Shown: in pieces, positions 8,549 to 35,047 of the stretch | Layout of the letters: each line of letters begins with the position of its first letter | How positions within the stretch are numbered: the first letter of the stretch is position 1 | Virus genome (UHGV): UHGV-0084069 | Origin: a virus | Length of the DNA: 40,020 nt | Direction: 5' to 3' (one strand) | Notes under the pieces: generated by a model | What the model was told of the DNA's origin: nothing | What the model saw: the letters and a program-made list of their open reading frames with translations, nothing else | Databases searched by the model: none | Program-made: the position numbers and the translations under genes

Positions 8549-9915
8549 TGCACTGGCACCTTCAGAGGGATCACCGGCACAAAGCCGGGATGCGTAATGG
8601 CATTACGCCGGATAATGTCCGCATCACGCGCCGCGTTATCAAACCAGGTCGCCGCCAGCACCAGCGCGGGTAAAACCTCATCCGGTGTGCGCTGAATGAT
8701 CCGTGCAGACTGTTCAAGGCGCGTGTTGATATCCGCATTCAGATCTGCTTTCACCCGGCGCAGTGCCAGAAACAGCGCATCACTGGTTGTACGGGACAAC
8801 TCCTTATCAATTGCCGTATTCAGTGTGTCGCGAATGTCAGTCAGTTCTTCCCACGTTGGCAGGTCAACCGTGTTTTTCACCGCCGGTGCATTGTTCAGTG
8901 CCGGATGCGTGACGGAAGGCCAGCCAGTGCTCTGCGCAGGTGTTGTTGACTGCCCCACTGCGGCATTCTGCATCACCGCGGAAGTTGTTGGCGCAGGCAA
9001 TCGGGTGACGGCATACGCCGCTTCGCTGATTGCGGTCGTACGAAGGGTACTGGCAACCTCGTTACGCTGATGCGTCGCCGTGGCGGTGGTTTTACTGTCC
9101 GTTTTCCAGACGCCGCGCGGTTGCAGATCGCTGCCGAGGCTGACACCGGAAAGCGTTTTGATCATGGTGACCAGGTCGCTGGCGTTACCATAAAGGCGTT
9201 TCCCGGTACGCCACATTTTCTGCACCTGCTCAACGAAATTTTTGCCTGACGATGGTGGCGGCAGAAGTACCGAGATATCCCCCTGCAACAGCCTGGCGGC
9301 ATCCGATACGGCAGAATCCACCACTTTCATCGCATCAGAAACATACCCAAGCATTGTGCTGGCATTACCGACGACGTCGTTCTGCACAAAATCTGCCACG
9401 CCATCGATACTGAAACCACTGAAGCTGTCACTGATGCAGTCATCCAGTGCAGAACAGGATGACATCAGCGTCTGCGCCGTCGCCGCACCTGAAGTGGGGT
9501 AAGAGAGTTCTCCCGCTTCGACAAACTTCAGGTCAAAGCGGACAATACGCCCTTCACTCTTCGATGTGCTGACCCGAACTTCCCCGTCAACACAGACTTT
9601 CAGCTCACCGTAAGTCGGATGGACAAGCGTGCCGGGACCGGGTTTATTCAGCGCGTCAATCAGGCGATCGCGCTGGTCAAAGCAGTCATCTCCCACCACA
9701 TAAGCTGTGATGGACGGGCGGAAAGTGATTTTCCCCAGGTCTTCGGTATAGGGTTTGTCGCGGTTCGGGTATTCGTGCGTTTCCACACGACGACCGGTTC
9801 CCGCACTTTCTTCTTCAACCTTAAACGGCACACCGCGAAATGACGCGTCCTGAAGTCTGTCTTTCCACGTCATATAAACTCCGTACATAAAAAATCCCAC
9901 CGGAGTGGGACTCAT
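8545..9915 (-). CDS. Mu gp43 (N)-like DNA circularisation / tail protein
   Basis: 456-aa ORF directly downstream of the tape measure gene. Confidence 0.55.
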   Translation of the reverse strand: MSPTPVGFFMYGVYMTWKDRLQDASFRGVPFKVEEESAGTGRRVETHEYPNRDKPYTEDLGKITFRPSITAYVVGDDCFDQRDRLIDALNKPGPGTLVHPTYGELKVCVDGEVRVSTSKSEGRIVRFDLKFVEAGELSYPTSGAATAQTLMSSCSALDDCISDSFSGFSIDGVADFVQNDVVGNASTMLGYVSDAMKVVDSAVSDAARLLQGDISVLLPPPSSGKNFVEQVQKMWRTGKRLYGNASDLVTMIKTLSGVSLGSDLQPRGVWKTDSKTTATATHQRNEVASTLRTTAISEAAYAVTRLPAPTTSAVMQNAAVGQSTTPAQSTGWPSVTHPALNNAPAVKNTVDLPTWEELTDIRDTLNTAIDKELSRTTSDALFLALRRVKADLNADINTRLEQSARIIQRTPDEVLPALVLAATWFDNAARDADIIRRNAITHPGFVPVIPLKVPVQ

Positions 9916-9933
9916 TAACAGATTAATTTTTCA

Positions 9934-11769
9934 TTACCTGCCAAAGCGCGTATAGCCAACATCATGGCTGACATCAAAACCGCTGGATCGCGTTTCCATA
10001 ACCCGCATACCCGGAGGCGAATTCATAAAAGAGACCTTGATCTCACCATCAACTTTTGGCGCAGAAGCTTTGTTAATCATGAAGGGATTCGGGCCTGTGG
10101 CACCGGAGGCGTTGTTTGACTGAGCCGGATCTACCGCCGGATAAGGTGTGTATCCCCGCGCCGGTATTCCCGTCCCATAAGCATCATAAGCACCCGCGCC
10201 CCACTGCGCAGAGTTAATGGCATCGACCGTGTCACCGGAACTGTCGGTAAACCACTCAATAATTGGCTTCAGCTTGTCCCACATATCCTGAAACCACTTA
10301 ACAACCGGCCCCCAGTTATTGATCACCATCCCCAGCGGCGACCAGGCAAAAACTTTCTTAAGGAGTTCCCAGCCAGCCTCAAAATAAGGACCAATGGTTT
10401 CCCAGAGTTTCTTAAAATAAGGTCCGACAACATCCCAGTTAGTGATAATTAATCCCGCAGCCAGGGCTATCGCCGTCGCAATCATGCCAATCGGCGTCAT
10501 CGACATGATCCTGCTGACAATACTGATGGCACCGCCAACGCCCATCAATCCCAGTTTCAGAATCGCAAGACCGGCAGCAAGCCCGACGACGCCGCGAATA
10601 ACCCGGGGATTTTCATCCGCAAACTTCGTGAATTTTTCCCCCAACTCCCCCAGCCATTGCGTGATATTTTTAGCGTCACCAGAAAATGCGCCGCCAATAG
10701 CTGCAAGACCGTTAGTTGCGGTCCCCGTCATTGCCTCCCACAGGTTGGACAGCGTACCAAGCTGGGCCTGAACACGTTTATTCAGGCTGGCCTGTTTATT
10801 CATCTTCTGCTGGATCTGATCGTAGCCATCCTTTCCTTTATCGATCAGAGCATTGACCACCTGAAGGGTTTCGGCATCATCACCAAATATTGCCTTAAGT
10901 ACACCGGTTCGCTTAACGTCGGTCAGTTTTCGCAGCTTTGCCAGTTGCCTGAACATGTTATCAAGACCGCCAAAACTCCCTTTGCCATCAGTAAAATCGA
11001 GCTGTACCCCGAGTTTCTGGCGGGCCATGATTTTATTGACGTCCCTGATTTTCTTAACGCTTAATCCGGACTGGATAACTTTTCGCAGGGCATTACCTGC
11101 CGACTCCCCGTTCATCCCCATCTGATCCATCATGACACTGATGGGGGCAAGACTCTGTGCAGCCTGAAGACCGTCCTTATTCACCATCTTCAGAACAGAG
11201 CTGGTTTTAGTGAAGAATGACAGCATGTTGGTGTCGTCAACGCCCAGATAAAACGCCTTCTGAATTGTGTCGAACAGCCCCATCATGTCTTCTGAGGCCG
11301 TTCCGGTAGCATCCTGCATCTTTGCGGCAAACTCGGCAGCCGCTTCCGGTGTTTTTTTCAGTTGTACCGCAAGATAAGCTGTCGCTTTACCCACACCACC
11401 CAGAATGTTTTCTGCCGGGATCCCCTGACGCACCAGCATCTGCATCATGTTCTGGAAATCAGCCGTTGTACCGGGTAGCTGGTTACCCAGGCCAATAGCC
11501 AGTTTATTGATGTCCTGAAAGCTCTTTCCAACCTCGCCGTTCGCATCCATCATGGCGACTTTCAGCCCGGTAGCGGCGTTTTCCTGATCGGCATAAGATT
11601 TCAGGGAAAGCGTCAGCCCCGCTGCCAGTCCGCCACCAAGCGCCAGCCCACCCTGTGACGCCTCTTCCGCCTGGCGTTTAAATCCCCGGATTTTCTTTTG
11701 CATTTTCGACAGCGCGGGAGAAAGCCTGTCGACACCGGTGATCAACGCCTTAAGCTCAAATTCAGCCAT
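9934..11769 (-). CDS. tail tape measure protein
   Basis: 611-aa ORF with a Gly/Ala-rich hydrophobic central region and coiled-coil N-terminus; preceded by the chaperone frameshift pair. Confidence 0.75.
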   Translation of the reverse strand: MAEFELKALITGVDRLSPALSKMQKKIRGFKRQAEEASQGGLALGGGLAAGLTLSLKSYADQENAATGLKVAMMDANGEVGKSFQDINKLAIGLGNQLPGTTADFQNMMQMLVRQGIPAENILGGVGKATAYLAVQLKKTPEAAAEFAAKMQDATGTASEDMMGLFDTIQKAFYLGVDDTNMLSFFTKTSSVLKMVNKDGLQAAQSLAPISVMMDQMGMNGESAGNALRKVIQSGLSVKKIRDVNKIMARQKLGVQLDFTDGKGSFGGLDNMFRQLAKLRKLTDVKRTGVLKAIFGDDAETLQVVNALIDKGKDGYDQIQQKMNKQASLNKRVQAQLGTLSNLWEAMTGTATNGLAAIGGAFSGDAKNITQWLGELGEKFTKFADENPRVIRGVVGLAAGLAILKLGLMGVGGAISIVSRIMSMTPIGMIATAIALAAGLIITNWDVVGPYFKKLWETIGPYFEAGWELLKKVFAWSPLGMVINNWGPVVKWFQDMWDKLKPIIEWFTDSSGDTVDAINSAQWGAGAYDAYGTGIPARGYTPYPAVDPAQSNNASGATGPNPFMINKASAPKVDGEIKVSFMNSPPGMRVMETRSSGFDVSHDVGYTRFGR

Positions 11770-27318: not shown

Positions 27319-27481
27319 GATTCCTCCTTGCTGCCAGTCGCAACCATTTTTTATCAACCAGGCTGGCGGTATATCCGAGCAGTGTTGGTATTTCGGAAGG
27401 CTTCAGCTCCGGTTTACGCTTACGACGATTTGGTACTCTGTAGATGTGTCCGTTCATGACCCGAATAAGCGGTGTAGCCAT
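27311..27481 (-). CDS. ninE: NinE-like protein
   Basis: 56-aa [40 protein letters not shown]...; ATG overlaps the ninB stop (TAATG) and its stop overlaps the ybcO-like start. Confidence 0.5.
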   Translation of the reverse strand: MATPLIRVMNGHIYRVPNRRKRKPELKPSEIPTLLGYTASLVDKKWLRLAARRNHG

Positions 27482-27936
27482 TACGCCTCCTGCTTGTCGC
27501 GCAGCAGCTGGAACTCGCAGCTCTGCGGAATAGTCAGGTGGCAGCCAATATTCATCGCCCAGGCTTCAACCTTACACAGGAAGACATACATCTCTCCGGT
27601 ATCAAGATCGGAGGTATGGCGTAACGACTGGATAGTAGTGATTTCGCCGGTTACGACATCAACCAAGTCCTTGGTTTCATAACCGAGGTATGTGTGTTTG
27701 AGTGCATCTTTTACCCATACTGCAGTAGCGAACGTTTTCCCCCTGCTGATGAGGTACTCGCTGATTTCGCTGTACCACATGTGGCTGAGTGCATTCTGGG
27801 AAAGACTGCGTCTTTCGCGCCACGGTTTAAGCACCATGCGAAAGCATTTGCCGTCCTCCAGATAAGACTGGATCTGCTGACCGATAGCGGTGAAGTTACC
27901 GCGATGCAATTTGATACCGTCTTGTGGGAGGTTCAC
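27481..27936 (-). CDS. ninB: NinB / Orf-family recombination mediator
   Basis: 151 aa; ...[17 protein letters not shown]... resembles the NinB core. Confidence 0.7.
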
Positions 27937-28130
27937 GCTTCACCTCCGCAGAGGTCAAACGTTGGATGCAAAAAAACGCAGGTGCATTTCTGCATCTGTG
28001 AATGGAGAAGATAGGTTGGATTGTATGTGCGCATAAACGTCCCCGTTTAGCGCAGAAGTCACCGGAGTTGTTCAGGCTCCAATGGCATGATTATGGCTGG
28101 TTGATTATTGGAAATCAAATGTGCTGAAAA

Positions 28131-28385
28131 TTAGTCTGCCAAGTCTTCCTCAGTCGCAACTGGGTAATTCCAAATATCAAAAAAAGCTATAGCCTCCTGC
28201 CATTTGCTCCATAAGTTATCAAGTACTTGTGTAGGTTCCGTACTTTTAAAAACAGAATCAGCCGCATCACCGTTATGAACTTCCTCGTACAGTTCCATTA
28301 TTAGCAGATTAACAAAGTACTGTTTCAACATTAATGCCTGATTACCTTCTTTCTGCTGGCTATCCTGCTTGATGATCTCCATCAC
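28131..28385 (-). CDS. hypothetical acidic protein (AT-rich cargo)
   Basis: 84-aa ORF in low-GC DNA at the edge of the accessory island. Confidence 0.35.
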   Translation of the reverse strand: MMEIIKQDSQQKEGNQALMLKQYFVNLLIMELYEEVHNGDAADSVFKSTEPTQVLDNLWSKWQEAIAFFDIWNYPVATEEDLAD

Positions 28386-29239
28386 CCGTACTAGGCACCT
28401 GATGATATCCGCTGCATCATTAACGCTCCATTCAGATCTGCGCTTATCTTTAGCTGATGTATTTGCTCTCTCAGCACAAGCCTTTAAAGGCTAATAAAGG
28501 TAAAGTCTATTTTGTAGCTGTAGCGTTTTTTTAAGTACTTCTTCTTGGCAAATGCCCCCTATGCTGCAACCAATGTGCCAATCGCAGAAATACCCGCCAC
28601 CATTGCAACTCCAGTCTGAACCGTCAAAGCCCCATATAATCATCACTCCTTATAAAATACTCTGTCAGTAATATCTAATAGGGGATTTTGGTAAGCAATA
28701 AAATTTATATCCATATCAGTTTATAATCTTTTCGGGCTGCTAACAGTGGATATCCAGTAGCTCTCACTCGCCACAGTGATGAATACCTGAGTATTCACTA
28801 ACTTCTATCACAGAGGGCAGGAAAAACCAGAAAAATGGCGCCCCAAAACATATATAATTAAAAGAGAAACATTTTCCGTTAAATGATATAGCTTCGACTA
28901 AATTCATTCTAAGCATACATAAAAACGAAGCCCTCTTTTTTATGTATGCACTAATTTGAGCTAGAATTAATAAACACATATTGTTAACTGGATGCACTTA
29001 AATCTAGGACCAGCAAACAGTATTGATACAATCTCATTCACGTCTACCAATTCACTTATCACAATAAGTTAAGTGAATTAACAACCCATCAAAAATACGC
29101 AAAAACATATCATCTTCAATGCATTACATTAAAAGAACCACTAAACACTTGTTTACTAAATATTTCACAAAGATAATTATAATAAACACCAACACCCCCA
29201 CCAATAAAATATAAAAAAGGGGGGGTATTGCAACAGAAA

Positions 29240-30025
29240 TTAAACTACCTGTTTCTTTTTATTGTCTGGAGATTTTTCATACTCCACTTTAGGTGCTGAG
29301 AAATTTAAATCTAGTGTTTGATTATTTGTCTTTCTATTTTTAGGTCTATTGACCAACCTCTCATCAATTAATGCAGCAGAAATATAATCATTAAATACTT
29401 TTATTTCCTGATAAATCTTATCAGCCAAAGCATCTATGCTTTTCCACATAGCGCTATTTTTAGAGGATGTATCTTTAAGCTCCCTATTAATTTCCTGATG
29501 AAATCCCCGTAACTGATTAATAAACTCCGATACTTTCCGCTCTAAAGAAGTTCTTGACTCCAAAATATAATCAATGTGCTCTTCCTTTATTTCCAAATCC
29601 CTAATTAGCTCTTTGTTTTTTTCTAATAGTGCTTCTTCTTTAGCAACAAGTCGTAATATTTTCGTTTCATTAGCTGTCAGTTCAACTAGAGCTCTGTTAA
29701 TTTCATCACGAATTAATAATTCATTGCGCTTAGAAGACGATGATTCATGTTGAATAATTTTTTCAATACAGTAATCTTTAGCTTGTTTTATTTCGCAGCA
29801 TATACCCTTCCATTTATCCCTCTCTAATCTAATTTTTCCCTGCAACTCCTTATTATTTTCTCTTTTTGTAATAAAAGATGAAAACCATAAAGAAAAGACG
29901 GCAACTGAAGGATACACCCACTGAGCAATATCGTCAGACGCTTGATAATAGTGCAATATTCTACTGGCACCAAGAGTTAATGCACCTGTCAATATGAATT
30001 GAAATGCCCCCATGAAACTTATCAT
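29240..30025 (-). CDS. hypothetical membrane-anchored coiled-coil protein (cargo gene B)
   Basis: 261 aa; two N-terminal hydrophobic helices (FMGAFQFILTGALTLGASRIL; VYPSVAVFSLWFSSFIT) then a long K/E-rich heptad-like region; markedly AT-rich; 6 nt downstream of gene A. Confidence 0.7.
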   Translation of the reverse strand: MISFMGAFQFILTGALTLGASRILHYYQASDDIAQWVYPSVAVFSLWFSSFITKRENNKELQGKIRLERDKWKGICCEIKQAKDYCIEKIIQHESSSSKRNELLIRDEINRALVELTANETKILRLVAKEEALLEKNKELIRDLEIKEEHIDYILESRTSLERKVSEFINQLRGFHQEINRELKDTSSKNSAMWKSIDALADKIYQEIKVFNDYISAALIDERLVNRPKNRKTNNQTLDLNFSAPKVEYEKSPDNKKKQVV

Positions 30026-30031
30026 AATGAT

Positions 30032-30538
30032 TTAATCCCGCATTAGAAGAAAATCATGTTTAATACCTTTTGCTTTCATATGCTCACTGAAACTTACTGG
30101 AGCATTTTCTAAAAATCTCAGATTTGTATAGATCAATTGGTTTAGTAAGGGAGAGGAAAAATCTACAATTGATGGAAGGTAAAACTCAGTACTCAATGAA
30201 ATATTGAGTTCATCATCTACACCTTGACTCAACGAATGAGATTTTATACCAATGGCGTATTTATTGTGCTCATCAATTAAAGATAATATTTCTTCGTTAG
30301 AAAGCTTTTTCTCCAACTGTTCAAAAACAAAACTTATGCTTAGTGAAATACAATAAGCATTTGGTCTTTTAAAAAGGCCATATATAATTTTTAAAGGTTC
30401 ATCATCCTTATCCGATGAGAAATCGAATCCACCAAAAGCATGATAATTATCATCATCAACAAGCTTAAACTTTTCTTCTTCAACATTTATTACACCTTCA
30501 ACATTAGTTAGAAGAGTAAATAAATCGGAATTTTTCAT
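30032..30538 (-). CDS. hypothetical soluble acidic protein (cargo gene A)
   Basis: 168 aa; AAGGAG 7 nt upstream of the ATG; markedly AT-rich; no family recognised. Confidence 0.7.
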   Translation of the reverse strand: MKNSDLFTLLTNVEGVINVEEEKFKLVDDDNYHAFGGFDFSSDKDDEPLKIIYGLFKRPNAYCISLSISFVFEQLEKKLSNEEILSLIDEHNKYAIGIKSHSLSQGVDDELNISLSTEFYLPSIVDFSSPLLNQLIYTNLRFLENAPVSFSEHMKAKGIKHDFLLMRD

Positions 30539-30896
30539 TTAGTACTCCTTACAGTATCTACTTTAATATCATTTTACCGTTTAATATTACATCTTGCACT
30601 AAAAACAAGTAGTCTACAGTATGCCACCCGCAGCCTCTTTATGATTACTTATTGTCCATATTCCTGAAATTTCCCTTTGGTGCAATTGCATACCATTCCA
30701 GCCTCTTCCTCCAGTGCCACCATCCAGTATGTCACTGCATACCTACCGTTGATTATGCACATCAAGTTCTGTTCACTCTACAGCGCCACTACATTTTTCA
30801 TAACACTCTTAACAGGCATATCATATGTATGAGCAACGTCTTAGCAACTGAATGTACTATTTGTCACAATGTAATGAATAATTGCCTCTTTGTCCG

Positions 30897-31598
30897 TCAT
30901 ACACTTGCTCCTTTCAGTCCGAACTTAGCTTTAATTTCTGCGATCTTCGCAAGAGCCTGTGCACGATTTAGAGGTCTACCGCCCATGACAGGAAGTTGTT
31001 TTACTGGTTCAGGTATAGCCTCACCACGGTTAATTCGCGCTGTCATACAGGTCAGTTCATCGGCAGCCTTGCGCCGTAATTCCGCGTCAGTCAGCGCATT
31101 GGCCCGCATGTTCTGGTACAAGTTGGTAACCAACCAGTAATGCGCGTTCGATTTCCACGGATAAGACTCCGCATCCGGATACAGGCCACGCTTCCGGCAA
31201 TACTCGTAAACCATATCAACCAGCTCGCTGACGTTTGGCAGCCCGGCGTTAACAGATGCTTCTTCCCGGCACCAGGCGACAAACTGCCCGGGTGATGGCA
31301 GGAATGGTCGATTCTGCCGACGGGCTACGCGCATTCCAGCGTTAACCTGTTCCATTGTGGTGATCCCGTTTTCCCGGAAAGCCAGAACCCACTGGCGGCG
31401 GATTTCGTTCAGTTCATTCTGGTCACGGTTAGCCAGGCTCGCCGGGAAAGTTGCCAGTAACTGGCTGAACACACCGTTGATGATCTGCGCTACCTGCTGT
31501 ACCTGTGGCTTTTCGTCGTACTGTTCCGGCATGTTGTTGGCGATCCGACGCATCTGCTCACGGTCAAAGTTAACCATCTGTGCGGCGATGTTTTTCAT
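30897..31598 (-). CDS. P: replication protein P (lambda P-like DnaB helicase loader)
   Basis: 233 aa, MKNIAAQMVNFDREQMRRIANNMPEQYDEKPQVQQ..., near-identical to recalled lambda P. Confidence 0.9.
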   Translation of the reverse strand: MKNIAAQMVNFDREQMRRIANNMPEQYDEKPQVQQVAQIINGVFSQLLATFPASLANRDQNELNEIRRQWVLAFRENGITTMEQVNAGMRVARRQNRPFLPSPGQFVAWCREEASVNAGLPNVSELVDMVYEYCRKRGLYPDAESYPWKSNAHYWLVTNLYQNMRANALTDAELRRKAADELTCMTARINRGEAIPEPVKQLPVMGGRPLNRAQALAKIAEIKAKFGLKGASV

Positions 31599-33450: not shown

Positions 33451-33554
33451 AACAACCTCCGTGGTTAATTTGAATCAAGATTAAAACCATGGTTGTTTTT
33501 AGTCAACAACCATTTTCGTTTGATGGAATAAAACCTTGGTTGTACATTTGGACT
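33451..33554. promoter_or_regulatory. immunity-region divergent promoter/operator region (OR-like)
   Basis: Repeated partial palindromes AAAACCATGGTTGTTTT (~33483-33499) and AAAACCTTGGTTGTAC (~33530-33545) between the cro-like and repressor starts. Confidence 0.5.
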
Positions 33555-34244
33555 ATGAAAACAACACTCTCAGAAAGACTTAAAGAAGCCAGATTAGCGC
33601 GAGGCCTTACACAAAAGGCGCTTGGGGATTTGGTCGGGGTTAGCCAGGCTGCTATTCAGAAAATCGAAACAGGGAAAGCTAATCAAACAACTAAAATCGT
33701 GGAGATCGCGAACGCTTTGGGTGTGCGCGCAGAATGGTTATCTTCTGGCGTTGGAAATATGTCAGACAGTACAGTGCAACCAATACAATCAACTGTCAGC
33801 CATTCCAAATACTTCAAGATTGACGTTCTTGATATAGAAGTCAGTGCTGGGCCGGGAGTCATCAACCGTGAGTTTGTAGAAGTTCTACGCTCGGTTGAGT
33901 ACTCGTTTGACGATGCTCGTCACATGTTCGATGGTAGGAAGGCGGAAAATATCCGCATCATTAACGTGCGTGGTGACAGCATGTCAGGAACGATCGAACC
34001 AGGTGATCTGCTGTTCGTTGATATCACAGTTAAATCTTTCGACGGTGATGGTATCTATGCGTTTCTGTACGACGACACAGCCCATGTAAAGCGCCTGCAA
34101 ATGATGAAGGATAAGCTGCTGGTCATCTCTGATAACAAAAGCTACTCACCGTGGGACCCGATCGAGAAAGACGAGATGAACCGGGTGTTCATCTTCGGTA
34201 AGGTTATTGGGAGCATGCCGCAGACATATAGGAAGCATGGGTAG
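33555..34244 (+). CDS. CI-type prophage repressor (N-terminal HTH, C-terminal S24 LexA-like peptidase domain)
   Basis: MKTTLSERLKEARLARGLTQKALGDLVGVSQAAIQKIE... HTH; C-terminal GDSMSGTIEPGDLLFVD with downstream KR; the track ORF starts upstream at 33489. Confidence 0.8.
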   Translation: MKTTLSERLKEARLARGLTQKALGDLVGVSQAAIQKIETGKANQTTKIVEIANALGVRAEWLSSGVGNMSDSTVQPIQSTVSHSKYFKIDVLDIEVSAGPGVINREFVEVLRSVEYSFDDARHMFDGRKAENIRIINVRGDSMSGTIEPGDLLFVDITVKSFDGDGIYAFLYDDTAHVKRLQMMKDKLLVISDNKSYSPWDPIEKDEMNRVFIFGKVIGSMPQTYRKHG

Positions 34245-34365
34245 TACCAATTAAAAATTATCAACTGGGCATTGTGCTCATTCAGTAAAGAACTAATTCC
34301 TATCTTTGCTCTAGGTAGTAATATTAAGCCACCGCAATAATATCTTTACCTAACGGCGTAAGAAT

Positions 34366-34391
34366 CCCGGTCACCGTGCCGGGTTTTCTTT
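34366..34391 (+). terminator. candidate intrinsic terminator after the repressor gene
   Basis: CCCGG-N8-CCGGG followed by TTTTCTTTT. Confidence 0.35.
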
Positions 34392-34520
34392 TGCCCCCCC
34401 CCTCATCACACACACCGTTAAAAAAACCACCATAACCTCGCTTCAGTTATCGCTATGCGATTCAAGTCACAAAATAAATCCATCCTAAATACAACCAGTT
34501 ATATCTAAAACAACCAATAA

Positions 34521-34565
34521 AACAACTTTTGTTGTTGACGATAAAACAACTGTAGTTTTAAATAA
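34521..34565 (+). promoter_or_regulatory. candidate pL-like promoter with overlapping operators (OL-like)
   Basis: Perfect palindrome AACAACTTTTGTTGTT overlapping -35 TTGACG (34535-40); 17-nt spacer; -10 TTAAAT; second element AAAACAACTGTAGTTTT. Confidence 0.4.
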
Positions 34566-34636
34566 GTTCATCGCAACAACACAACGATACGGCAACTACC
34601 TGATTCACCGTTGCGATGACCGCTTAGATCCGCAGT

Positions 34637-35047
34637 TTGAATTTCAGCAGGCTTCGGGGAGTGCGAGGGGTGAAACGGACGCGTGAACGTCGGTGTGACC
34701 AGCTGAAATTAACTCAACATTTCATACCTCAGTCGCTTCAACGAGGCGGCTTAGTTATGACAACCGGCGGCCATCCACCGCCTGAATACGCGCAGAAGTC
34801 TCTATATGTTCAGCAGCCCAGCTTACGGGCAGGAGTTTTTATGGTTCATCAACATTACGGAACGCAGACCGTTAATCGAGGTGCGGTCATGCCAGGAATG
34901 CTGGTCAAACACAAAGATGGTACCTGGACTGCATCAGCTAATTTACGCGGACGGCTATATCTGCATCGCGGCATCGAGCGCACTTATACCCGTGATTTGC
35001 TCGTGGAAGTTTTTCTCGACGGACGCGGTAACGGCCTGAATCACTAA
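34637..35047 (+). CDS. first gene of the early-left operon; Arg-rich N-terminus, possible N-like antiterminator
   Basis: ORF from TTG 34637; alternative GTG at 34673 preceded by GGAG would give an N-terminus MKRTRERRCDQLKL resembling the lambda N arginine-rich motif; an internal ATG (MTTGG...) is also possible. Confidence 0.4.
   Translation: MNFSRLRGVRGVKRTRERRCDQLKLTQHFIPQSLQRGGLVMTTGGHPPPEYAQKSLYVQQPSLRAGVFMVHQHYGTQTVNRGAVMPGMLVKHKDGTWTASANLRGRLYLHRGIERTYTRDLLVEVFLDGRGNGLNH

Follow-up and report, generated by a model that had tools for sequence, protein, structure and literature searches.

A mobile gene pair encoding a chaperone-fold protein and a predicted membrane protein as a candidate defence module of lambdoid prophages and other elements

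In the dyad of a CesT/Tir-like protein and PspA, represented by YjfI-YjfJ of Escherichia coli and BacA-BacB of Pseudomonas aeruginosa, the gene for a chaperone-fold protein comes first and the gene for a helical, coiled-coil, membrane-associated partner follows a few nucleotides downstream. This dyad is a recognised conserved neighbourhood (10.1101/2020.09.24.301986), and the BacA gene directly precedes an all-helical PspA-family gene, with BacA exerting negative control over its operon partners (PMC10948618). Among prophage-borne systems, the lambda abortive-infection pair RexA/RexB is a two-gene module of a soluble and an inner-membrane protein in a lambdoid cargo slot, and PD-lambda-1 (SNIPE) was found by functional selection and later described as a membrane-bound nuclease, which cleaves the DNA of a phage while it is being injected (10.1101/2022.05.12.491691; 10.1101/2025.11.03.685801). 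Here we describe a pair of genes, gene A and gene B, located between replication gene P and ybcN/ninB in UHGV virus genome UHGV-0084069, a 40,020-nt stretch of DNA that we refer to as the window. The pair resembles each of these systems in part, and we regard it as a mobile two-gene module, whose putative soluble regulator and putative membrane effector both belong to new protein families, and as a credible candidate for a defence system.

Relation of the A-B pair to described systems

The window represents a lambdoid prophage whose early region is DLP12-like, and its near-identical H9Ecoli record contains a complete-looking element of ~37 kb at tRNA-Thr/proA with myovirus-type tail genes. The two genes under study are as follows.

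30032-30538, minus strand: gene A, an open reading frame of 168 aa with an ATG start; acidic product with a modelled YbjN/CesT ("TY-chaperone") fold
29240-30025, minus strand: gene B, an open reading frame of 261 aa with an ATG start; basic product that starts with a hydrophobic hairpin, continues as a long helical/coiled-coil region and ends in a disordered tail

In line with the original prediction of two co-oriented genes with their own start contexts, A and B are separated by only 6 nt (TAAATCATTATG), both begin with ATG, and a strong AAGGAG Shine-Dalgarno sequence (30545-30550) lies 6 nt 5' of the start codon of A. The predicted compositional anomaly is equally clear, with a G+C content of 0.29-0.35 over ~28750-30700 compared to 0.48-0.57 in P/O and the nin genes.

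With respect to gene order and spacing (A then B, 2-20 nt apart in 11 lineages), the pair reproduces the architecture of the CesT-like/PspA dyad, whereas B does not share the identity of PspA. Unlike the dyad, A has no sequence relation to DUF2170 nor B to PspA_IM30, B carries a hydrophobic hairpin, and the pair is AT-rich, rare and found in mobile cargo slots instead of a chromosomal stress operon. Like RexA/RexB, it is a prophage module of one soluble and one (in the case of B, predicted) inner-membrane protein in a lambdoid cargo slot, and the logic that we propose below, in which a cytosolic partner would control a membrane effector, is also similar. The slot, however, is a different one: RexAB occupies the neighbouring cI-side slot of the sibling prophage L028, where the PADLOC models for RexA and RexB match the resident pair (E = 3.5e-115 and 2.1e-55, respectively) while matching neither A nor B. 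To our knowledge, RexB is a four-transmembrane protein that lacks a long cytoplasmic coiled coil and RexA has no known chaperone fold. SNIPE is a prophage-borne defence that occupies the same P-to-ybcN slot as A-B and likewise joins an N-terminal membrane anchor (predicted for B) to a cytoplasmic part; unlike A and B, it is a single 500-aa protein with DUF4041 and nuclease domains encoded on the opposite strand, and neither A nor B bears a nuclease or DUF4041 signature.

Comparisons of the individual proteins lead to a similar picture. A is longer than the class I chaperones of type III secretion systems (T3SS; CesT, SycE, SicP and ExsC) and YbjN (168 versus ~120-145 aa) and, unlike theirs, its predicted partner is a resident membrane protein and not a secreted effector; no T3SS or effector genes occur near any examined copy of the pair. 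B, for its part, recalls ZorA of the Zorya system in combining a membrane part with a long intracellular helical tail, and some weak, sub-threshold matches fall on the ZorA tail, but a MotA/ExbB domain and a ZorB partner are both absent, and the tail matches (E of 1e-3 or weaker) involve only coiled-coil segments in three of 13 members. Judged by sequence, the pair is thus not a member of any catalogued defence, toxin-antitoxin, phage-shock-protein (Psp) or secretion-chaperone family.

Co-inheritance, mobility and decay of the pair

The original prediction hinged in part on whether A and B co-occur in other genomes, and they do so consistently. In all 11 diverged lineages that we recovered, A precedes B with a gap of 2-20 nt and the pair has a G+C content of 30-36% even in high-GC hosts; the two genes are never found apart in these loci and their divergences correlate (r = 0.94) down to 34%/23% identity. 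Between diverged copies, for which dS reaches ~2, dN/dS is about 0.05-0.27 for A and B, with values of 0.08-0.15 for gene B, and this indicates that both are real genes under strong purifying selection.

Despite this conservation as a unit, the pair is exceedingly rare. Among 5.8 billion proteins, the A family accounts for nine clusters at 90% identity, and an exhaustive profile scan of 1.84 billion representatives yielded eight relatives of B, which measure 240-277 aa with the exception of one 42-aa fragment. The pair is absent from PLSDB plasmids, from deposited phage genomes and from 100,044 species-representative genomes, and the window segment is present in only two of 5,426 complete E. 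coli genomes, compared to 3,170 for P. Public assemblies nevertheless index the exact window B protein in ~180 sample blocks, in each case with its position and spacing unchanged. All hosts of the pair belong to the Enterobacterales, and every copy is annotated as "hypothetical". The repressor of the window (33489-34244, plus strand) is a 251-aa protein with helix-turn-helix and S24 peptidase domains and differs from that found in the two complete-genome carriers (229-230 aa), which means that an identical A-B segment has been combined with different immunity regions; such combinations are typical of lambdoid mosaicism.

The range of genetic contexts in which the pair resides is broad. In addition to lambdoid prophages of Escherichia, Enterobacter and Klebsiella, where it occupies the P-to-ninB slot, we found it in a satellite resembling phage-inducible chromosomal islands (PICI) and P4, which encodes AlpA, an Ash-like repressor, an integrase, a D5 primase and a TerS-like gene, and as a two-gene islet between core genes of Serratia (beside cysE) and Pectobacterium. 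Another chromosomal copy (L015) lies at a yjaZ-adjacent site, 4 kb from a PDC-M12/AbiL-like candidate defence pair. Diverged A-B pairs are also essentially the only cargo of ColE2-Rep plasmids of 2.3-5.2 kb with or without mobilisation genes (L010 1-2498, L011, L013 1-4745 and L014 1-5186), which encode a ColE2-type replicase (PF03090) with or without a relaxase/MobC and ParE. On these small contigs, which have no terminal repeats and whose circular completeness is thus unproven, B is convergent with rep and the two genes share a terminator hairpin.

Two rearranged prophages, in which A-B is 99.6-99.98% identical to the window, further illustrate the independence of the pair from its surroundings. 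In one (L036 3976-5138), an element of the IS3 insertion sequence family sits ~80 nt past P (window 30817-30821) and upstream of A, and in the other (L040 4584-5488; window 31387), cI, cro, O and, from its 5' end, most of P are missing from a prophage remnant; the pair is intact in both. Survival of the insertion and of the cI-to-P deletion, together with the TATAAT boxes and terminators of several lineages, indicates that the pair behaves as an autonomous, mobile and co-inherited unit.

Two kinds of disrupted variant were also observed. One involves a homopolymer within B:

29616-29622, minus strand: A7 tract of gene B at which a frameshift occurs in several isolates

At this tract, B is frameshifted in several independent E. 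coli isolates to give products of 141 aa (P0029, ending in ...EKKQRAN before the stop) and 118 aa (P0031) while A is intact; the variant occurs on six contigs from at least four accessions and could reflect slippage-prone inactivation of a costly partner or simple decay. The other is a metagenome variant (L009 1-860, compared to L016 596-983) in which a deletion of ~230 nt removes the C-terminus of A along with ~19 residues from the start of B. The deletion junction shows an overlap of 23 nt, which suggests short-repeat recombination or an assembly artefact.

Extent of the cassette and its cargo slot

The original prediction placed the pair in a variable accessory region between P and ninB, acquired horizontally. 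Our sibling comparisons bear this out: in most sibling prophages ren occupies the position, and homology with thousands of them ends at ~30833-30871, just beyond the stop codon of P, and resumes at 28717, which delimits a foreign segment of ~2.2 kb. We take ~28718-30870 to be a horizontally acquired, self-contained two-gene cassette consisting of a leader, A, B and a terminator. Its parts and boundaries are the following.

30897-31598, minus strand: replication gene P, lambda-type, 233 aa, an open reading frame; upstream boundary, outside the cassette
30539-30896, minus strand: leader of 358 nt, unique by sequence inspection to carriers of the window-type cassette
30614-30633: terminator-like hairpin in the leader, between P and A
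30571-30599: putative, weak promoter-like element in the leader, GTGCAA-17-TAAAAT, assigned by inference
29190-29230, minus strand: C7/G-run hairpin and U-rich tract directly 3' of the B stop codon; probable intrinsic terminator
28718-29189: AT-rich stretch of ~470 nt with a G+C content of ~0.29-0.37, found in window-type carriers and in no other lineage of the pair
28131-28646, minus strand: pseudogene of the 169-aa phage protein phrog_1779, split into open reading frames of 51 and 84 aa; downstream boundary, outside the cassette
27481-27936, minus strand: ybcN/ninB, from open reading frame and annotation; first conserved nin-region gene beyond the slot

The near-identical H9Ecoli record annotates P as "replication protein P" (WP_001473962.1), and the sibling prophage L003 encodes an identical protein. 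The hairpin 3' of B has a folding energy of -20.1 kcal/mol (z = -3.26), with one of 200 shuffled sequences folding equally well, and a comparable terminator hairpin lies 3' of B in L006/L007 and in the plasmid copies. None of L006, L007 and L012 shares the leader of the window-type cassette, and canonical TATAAT boxes lie 30-60 nt upstream of A in several lineages. The top sigma-70-like match of the region, TTGAAA-18-CATAAT (10/12; 29999-30028, plus strand), runs antisense to the A-B junction and is probably a chance occurrence in AT-rich DNA since such matches are not enriched over shuffles. The AT-rich stretch downstream of the terminator contains no supported open reading frame and may be left over from previous cargo or have a regulatory role. 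Its 77-aa open reading frame (28764-28997) has no match in Pfam, NCBIfam, PHROGs or PADLOC, and no Rfam match was found within 27900-31000. In the pseudogene, the 84-aa open reading frame aligns to positions 87-169 of the 169 in phrog_1779 (E = 3e-46), and RefSeq annotates only this C-terminal piece, as a hypothetical protein; the gene is intact (510 bp) in L002, L003 and L027.

The cargo found between P and ybcN in sampled siblings differs from one prophage to the next:

L002: ren, emrE and ybcK
L003 and L027: a ren-like gene and PD-lambda-1/SNIPE (PADLOC E = 2e-198; named SNIPE in RefSeq)
L026: a HEPN-domain pair
L028: a phosphoribosyltransferase-like gene and NADAR pair
L012: a DndB-like gene adjoining A-B
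L029: an inverse autotransporter

This sampling indicates that the P-to-ybcN slot is a genuine cargo hotspot, which often but not always holds defence genes (the cargo of L002 and L029 is non-defence), and validated defence genes are among its occupants in related elements.

A second cargo slot, between the cI-type repressor and kil (window 34245-34805), is empty in the window. Prophages with an identical A-B pair have this slot at L001 12370-13943, L033 101-1708, L035 272-1688, L037 202-1104 and L038 254-1719. The defence-like cargo of carriers differs and includes a HipA-family kinase with DUF3037 (PDC-M66-like; L001 and L031), a 535-aa SIR2_2 protein, ASCH with a 353-aa protein, DUF6414, and a PP2C phosphatase with a protein kinase. 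In the non-carrier sibling L028, it is this slot that contains RexAB (8928-10231).

Predicted properties of the A and B proteins

A was predicted to be a small, acidic and soluble protein, and its isoelectric point of 4.76 and the absence of any hydrophobic segment by hydropathy agree with this. Using an alignment of nine sequences, AlphaFold2 produced a confident model of A (predicted local distance difference test, pLDDT, of 87; predicted TM-score, pTM, of 0.82) in which a beta-sheet of five to six strands packs on helices. Members of the YbjN/CesT superfamily were recovered among the best structural matches of this model, BacA being the second best, and we are confident that the modelled A has the fold of the YbjN/CesT T3SS chaperones. 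At the level of sequence, none of the nine A proteins has a Pfam match to CesT, YbjN (PF10722) or DUF2170 (PF09938), even at E ≤ 10. Kinship with YjfI was considered and, at this level, rejected, because alignment of the A profile to E. coli YjfI using hhalign returned a probability of 1.6%. A therefore shares the chaperone fold and not the sequence families that possess it. A sequence-profile search of the PDB returned nothing for A, comparison to a viral structure library gave no match at E ≤ 0.001, and PADLOC left all nine family members unmatched. There is also no DNA-binding domain match, and the model consists entirely of the chaperone-type fold. The suggestion that A acts as a sensor or regulator needs to be narrowed: the fold of A is indicative of a peptide-binding partner or regulator more than of a generic sensor.

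B is basic (isoelectric point of 8.6) and, according to AlphaFold2, composed of helices at residues 4-26, 31-93, 99-183 and 188-225, followed by a tail that is disordered from residue 226 (pLDDT < 50 over residues 217-261). These helices, together with a heptad contrast that is strongest around residues 138-165, support the long coiled coil that had been proposed for it. The following elements of B are of particular relevance.

29963-30025, minus strand: residues 1-21, hydrophobic segment 1 (Kyte-Doolittle score over 19 residues, KD19, of 1.5-2.15; Hessa dG of 0 to +2.7 kcal/mol across homologues)
29867-29920, minus strand: residues 36-53, hydrophobic segment 2 (WVYPSVAVFSLWFSSFIT; WVYPSVAVFSLW...), the most conserved block
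29330-29338, minus strand: residues 230-232, N-R-K motif (N230 invariant and R231/K232 at least 90% conserved in 13 diverged sequences)

Of the two transmembrane helices predicted for the N-terminus, that at residues 1-21 is plausible in every homologue, going by its hydrophobicity, whereas the segment at residues 36-53 is only marginally hydrophobic. The latter region is nonetheless the best conserved part of the protein, with a mean conservation of 0.72 and with Q35, Y38 and P39 invariant in 13 sequences. A cluster of lysine and arginine residues directly behind it suggests, by the positive-inside rule, that the N-terminus likely forms an N-in/C-in hairpin and that the remainder of B is cytoplasmic. 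This remainder includes a conserved domain at residues 161-225 and the N-R-K motif in the tail, a candidate short linear binding motif.

No B family member reached the threshold in searches of Pfam, NCBIfam, PHROGs and PADLOC, a PDB profile search yielded only coiled-coil noise, and no known toxin family or fold was found in B. Matches to MCRA, DUF948 and the ZorA tail were set aside as coiled-coil noise, and those of PADLOC models to the 13 B members were weak and inconsistent (best E of ~1e-3 to 1e-4, each in at most three of 13). On sequence grounds we also rejected the identification of B as a PspA protein, as none of the 13 B proteins matches PspA_IM30 (PF04012) at E ≤ 10, and alignment of their profile to YjfJ by hhalign returned a probability of 0.2%. 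By sequence, the view that the proteins resemble no nameable family thus stands for Pfam, NCBIfam, PHROGs, PADLOC and the PDB, and no homology to a housekeeping or known non-defence phage function, which would have spoken against the original prediction, emerged for either protein.

Possible functions of the pair

On balance, we lean slightly towards anti-phage defence, by whatever mechanism, as the function of the pair. Support for its standing as a defence candidate comes from its mobility as a unit, the range of contexts in which it occurs, its rarity and patchiness, its autonomy, the fold of A and its position in the P-to-ybcN slot. TY-chaperone families have in addition been predicted as components of other conflict systems by the Aravind laboratory (PMC9503650). 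A more specific proposal, that the chaperone-fold protein A gates a membrane-anchored effector B in an anti-phage or anti-competitor module, is tentative and somewhat more apt to be wrong than right. Here, B would be anchored in the inner membrane via its N-terminal hairpin, with its stalk, C-terminal domain and tail in the cytoplasm, and cytosolic A would bind an extended segment of B, either the marginal hairpin or the N-R-K tail, and thereby hold B inactive. Class I chaperones and YbjN-type proteins bind their partners, and by this analogy A most likely binds B. Infection would then release or rearrange B once the hold of A is relieved, and freed B would compromise the membrane or a step of injection or assembly such that infection is aborted or excluded. 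The logic would be that of RexA/RexB, with unrelated proteins, and the module would protect its carrier element against competing phages. In this proposal we infer the binding of A to B, the topology of B, expression in the lysogen, the trigger, and any toxic or protective activity. One particular version, in which A keeps the conserved marginal hairpin soluble or inactive until a phage cue displaces it and B inserts or oligomerises to abort the infection, is rather unlikely to be correct. That B would be the harmful partner is hinted at by the layout of an acidic protein encoded upstream of a basic one, by the frameshifts that break B and leave A intact, which would be the safe order of decay if this were so, and by the loss, in one variant, of the last part of A along with the first part of B.

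Several observations weigh against these proposals. Segment 2 of B has a KD of only ~1.3-1.4 and a 17-mer dG of +3.5 to +4.3, and the model of B is of low confidence (pLDDT of 63). The promoter-like element in the leader is a weak one, and with eight such matches in the region compared to 11.5 expected from shuffles, the window's own promoter stays putative. All prophage copies of the pair lie directly after O-P and are co-oriented with the early lytic operon, so expression may occur mainly during lytic growth. Location is circumstantial, and the same slot also takes emrE/ybcK (L002) and an inverse autotransporter (L029). In addition, of the described systems that share this gene order, the nearest analogue, the CesT-like/PspA dyad, is a stress-response unit and not a defence system. 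Lastly, neither A nor B matches any of the 5,027 models of PADLOC-DB v2.0.0, which covers known and candidate systems, a result that fits novelty and lends no positive support, and our literature search found no paper that names the RefSeq accessions or describes a defence system composed of a CesT/YbjN-fold component and a membrane coiled-coil partner.

Other functions can be envisaged for a pair with these properties, and the same data bear on each of them. Constitutive superinfection exclusion, whereby B in the inner membrane blocks an injection or envelope step of phages or plasmids without killing the cell and A serves as its chaperone for assembly or stability, would place the pair alongside SNIPE, a validated occupant of the same slot that acts at the inner membrane during injection. 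The most conserved block of B (Q-x-x-Y-P...) is membrane-proximal and could contact conserved injection factors of the host inner membrane, and class I chaperone folds stabilise partner proteins (PMC10948618). We nevertheless consider exclusion quite unlikely, as a passive block does not explain the ~170 conserved cytoplasmic residues and the tail motif of B. Furthermore, the exclusion proteins known to us (SieA, Sim, Imm, Ltp and HK97 gp15) are single small membrane proteins that lack an obligatory cytosolic partner. A low probability of the same order applies to a toxin-antitoxin-like addiction or stabilisation module in which B is a membrane-active toxin and A its proteinaceous antitoxin, such that loss of the pair kills the cell and there is no dedicated anti-phage role. 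The layout of type II systems is present, with acidic A upstream of basic B at a gap of 6 nt in the window and 2-20 nt across lineages, and such a module could account for the pair being essentially the sole cargo of small ColE2-type plasmids, for its retention in a prophage remnant, for the isolates with frameshifted B and intact A, and for the variant with a deletion that reaches from A into B. The corresponding domains are missing, however: A has no match to a helix-turn-helix, ribbon-helix-helix or AbrB domain, of the DNA-binding sort that autoregulates type II systems, and B has no known toxin fold or motif. One plasmid that bears the pair already has a ParE toxin gene, and the family is very rare for an addiction module. 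Toxin-antitoxin-like behaviour and defence by abortive infection are, in any case, not mutually exclusive.

Slightly less probable again is a mobile membrane-stress module, analogous to the CesT-like/PspA dyad, in which B stabilises or remodels the membrane, A is its chaperone or negative regulator, and the benefit is tolerance of envelope stress such as that caused by pore formers or lysis from without. The conserved neighbourhood and the negative control by BacA introduced above are precedents, BacA is the second-best structural match of A, yjfI-yjfJ of E. coli has the same gene order with an 18-nt gap, and B is all-helical with coiled-coil character. Against it stand the profile comparisons, which relate neither B to PspA_IM30 or YjfJ nor A to YjfI, and a distribution over mobile-element hotspots that is unlike that of chromosomal psp loci. 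B also bears a hydrophobic hairpin at its N-terminus, and we know of no PspA protein that does. The least probable of these functions, and a very unlikely one, is an early lytic function specific to the phage and driven from pR, be it ren-like or an accessory to replication or host takeover. The position of all prophage copies after O-P and their co-orientation with the early operon agree with it, but purifying selection also maintains the pair in small plasmids, in a satellite and at sites among core genes of the chromosome that have no phage genes nearby, and the plasmid and chromosomal copies largely exclude an early phage function. In the window, moreover, a terminator-like hairpin separates P from the pair, and in the remnant that lacks cI, pR, O and most of P the pair is intact.

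The candidate that we describe is one of many from such hotspots, yet it is well delimited and stands out for its unusual combination of folds and its striking mobility across elements. Being only 1.3 kb long, self-contained and found in E. coli, the pair can be tested directly by cloning, and its occurrence as sole cargo on plasmids of 2-5 kb suggests a strong selectable phenotype. The outcome also warns against annotating A and B from position alone. Should the pair turn out to be an analogue of the Psp system, it would provide a handle on the poorly understood CesT-like/PspA stress module. If it is a true defence module, it would add a system of two protein families that are absent from every curated library, document the lambdoid P-to-ninB slot as a defence hotspot beside the known hotspots of P2, P4 and PICI, and extend to immunity the T3SS chaperone/YbjN fold, whose presence in other conflict systems has so far been predicted only computationally. 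And if A does gate B, with no secretion system involved, bacterial immunity would have its founding case of a chaperone-gated conditional membrane effector, and with it a new sensor-effector principle that prophages, satellites and plasmids alike carry.

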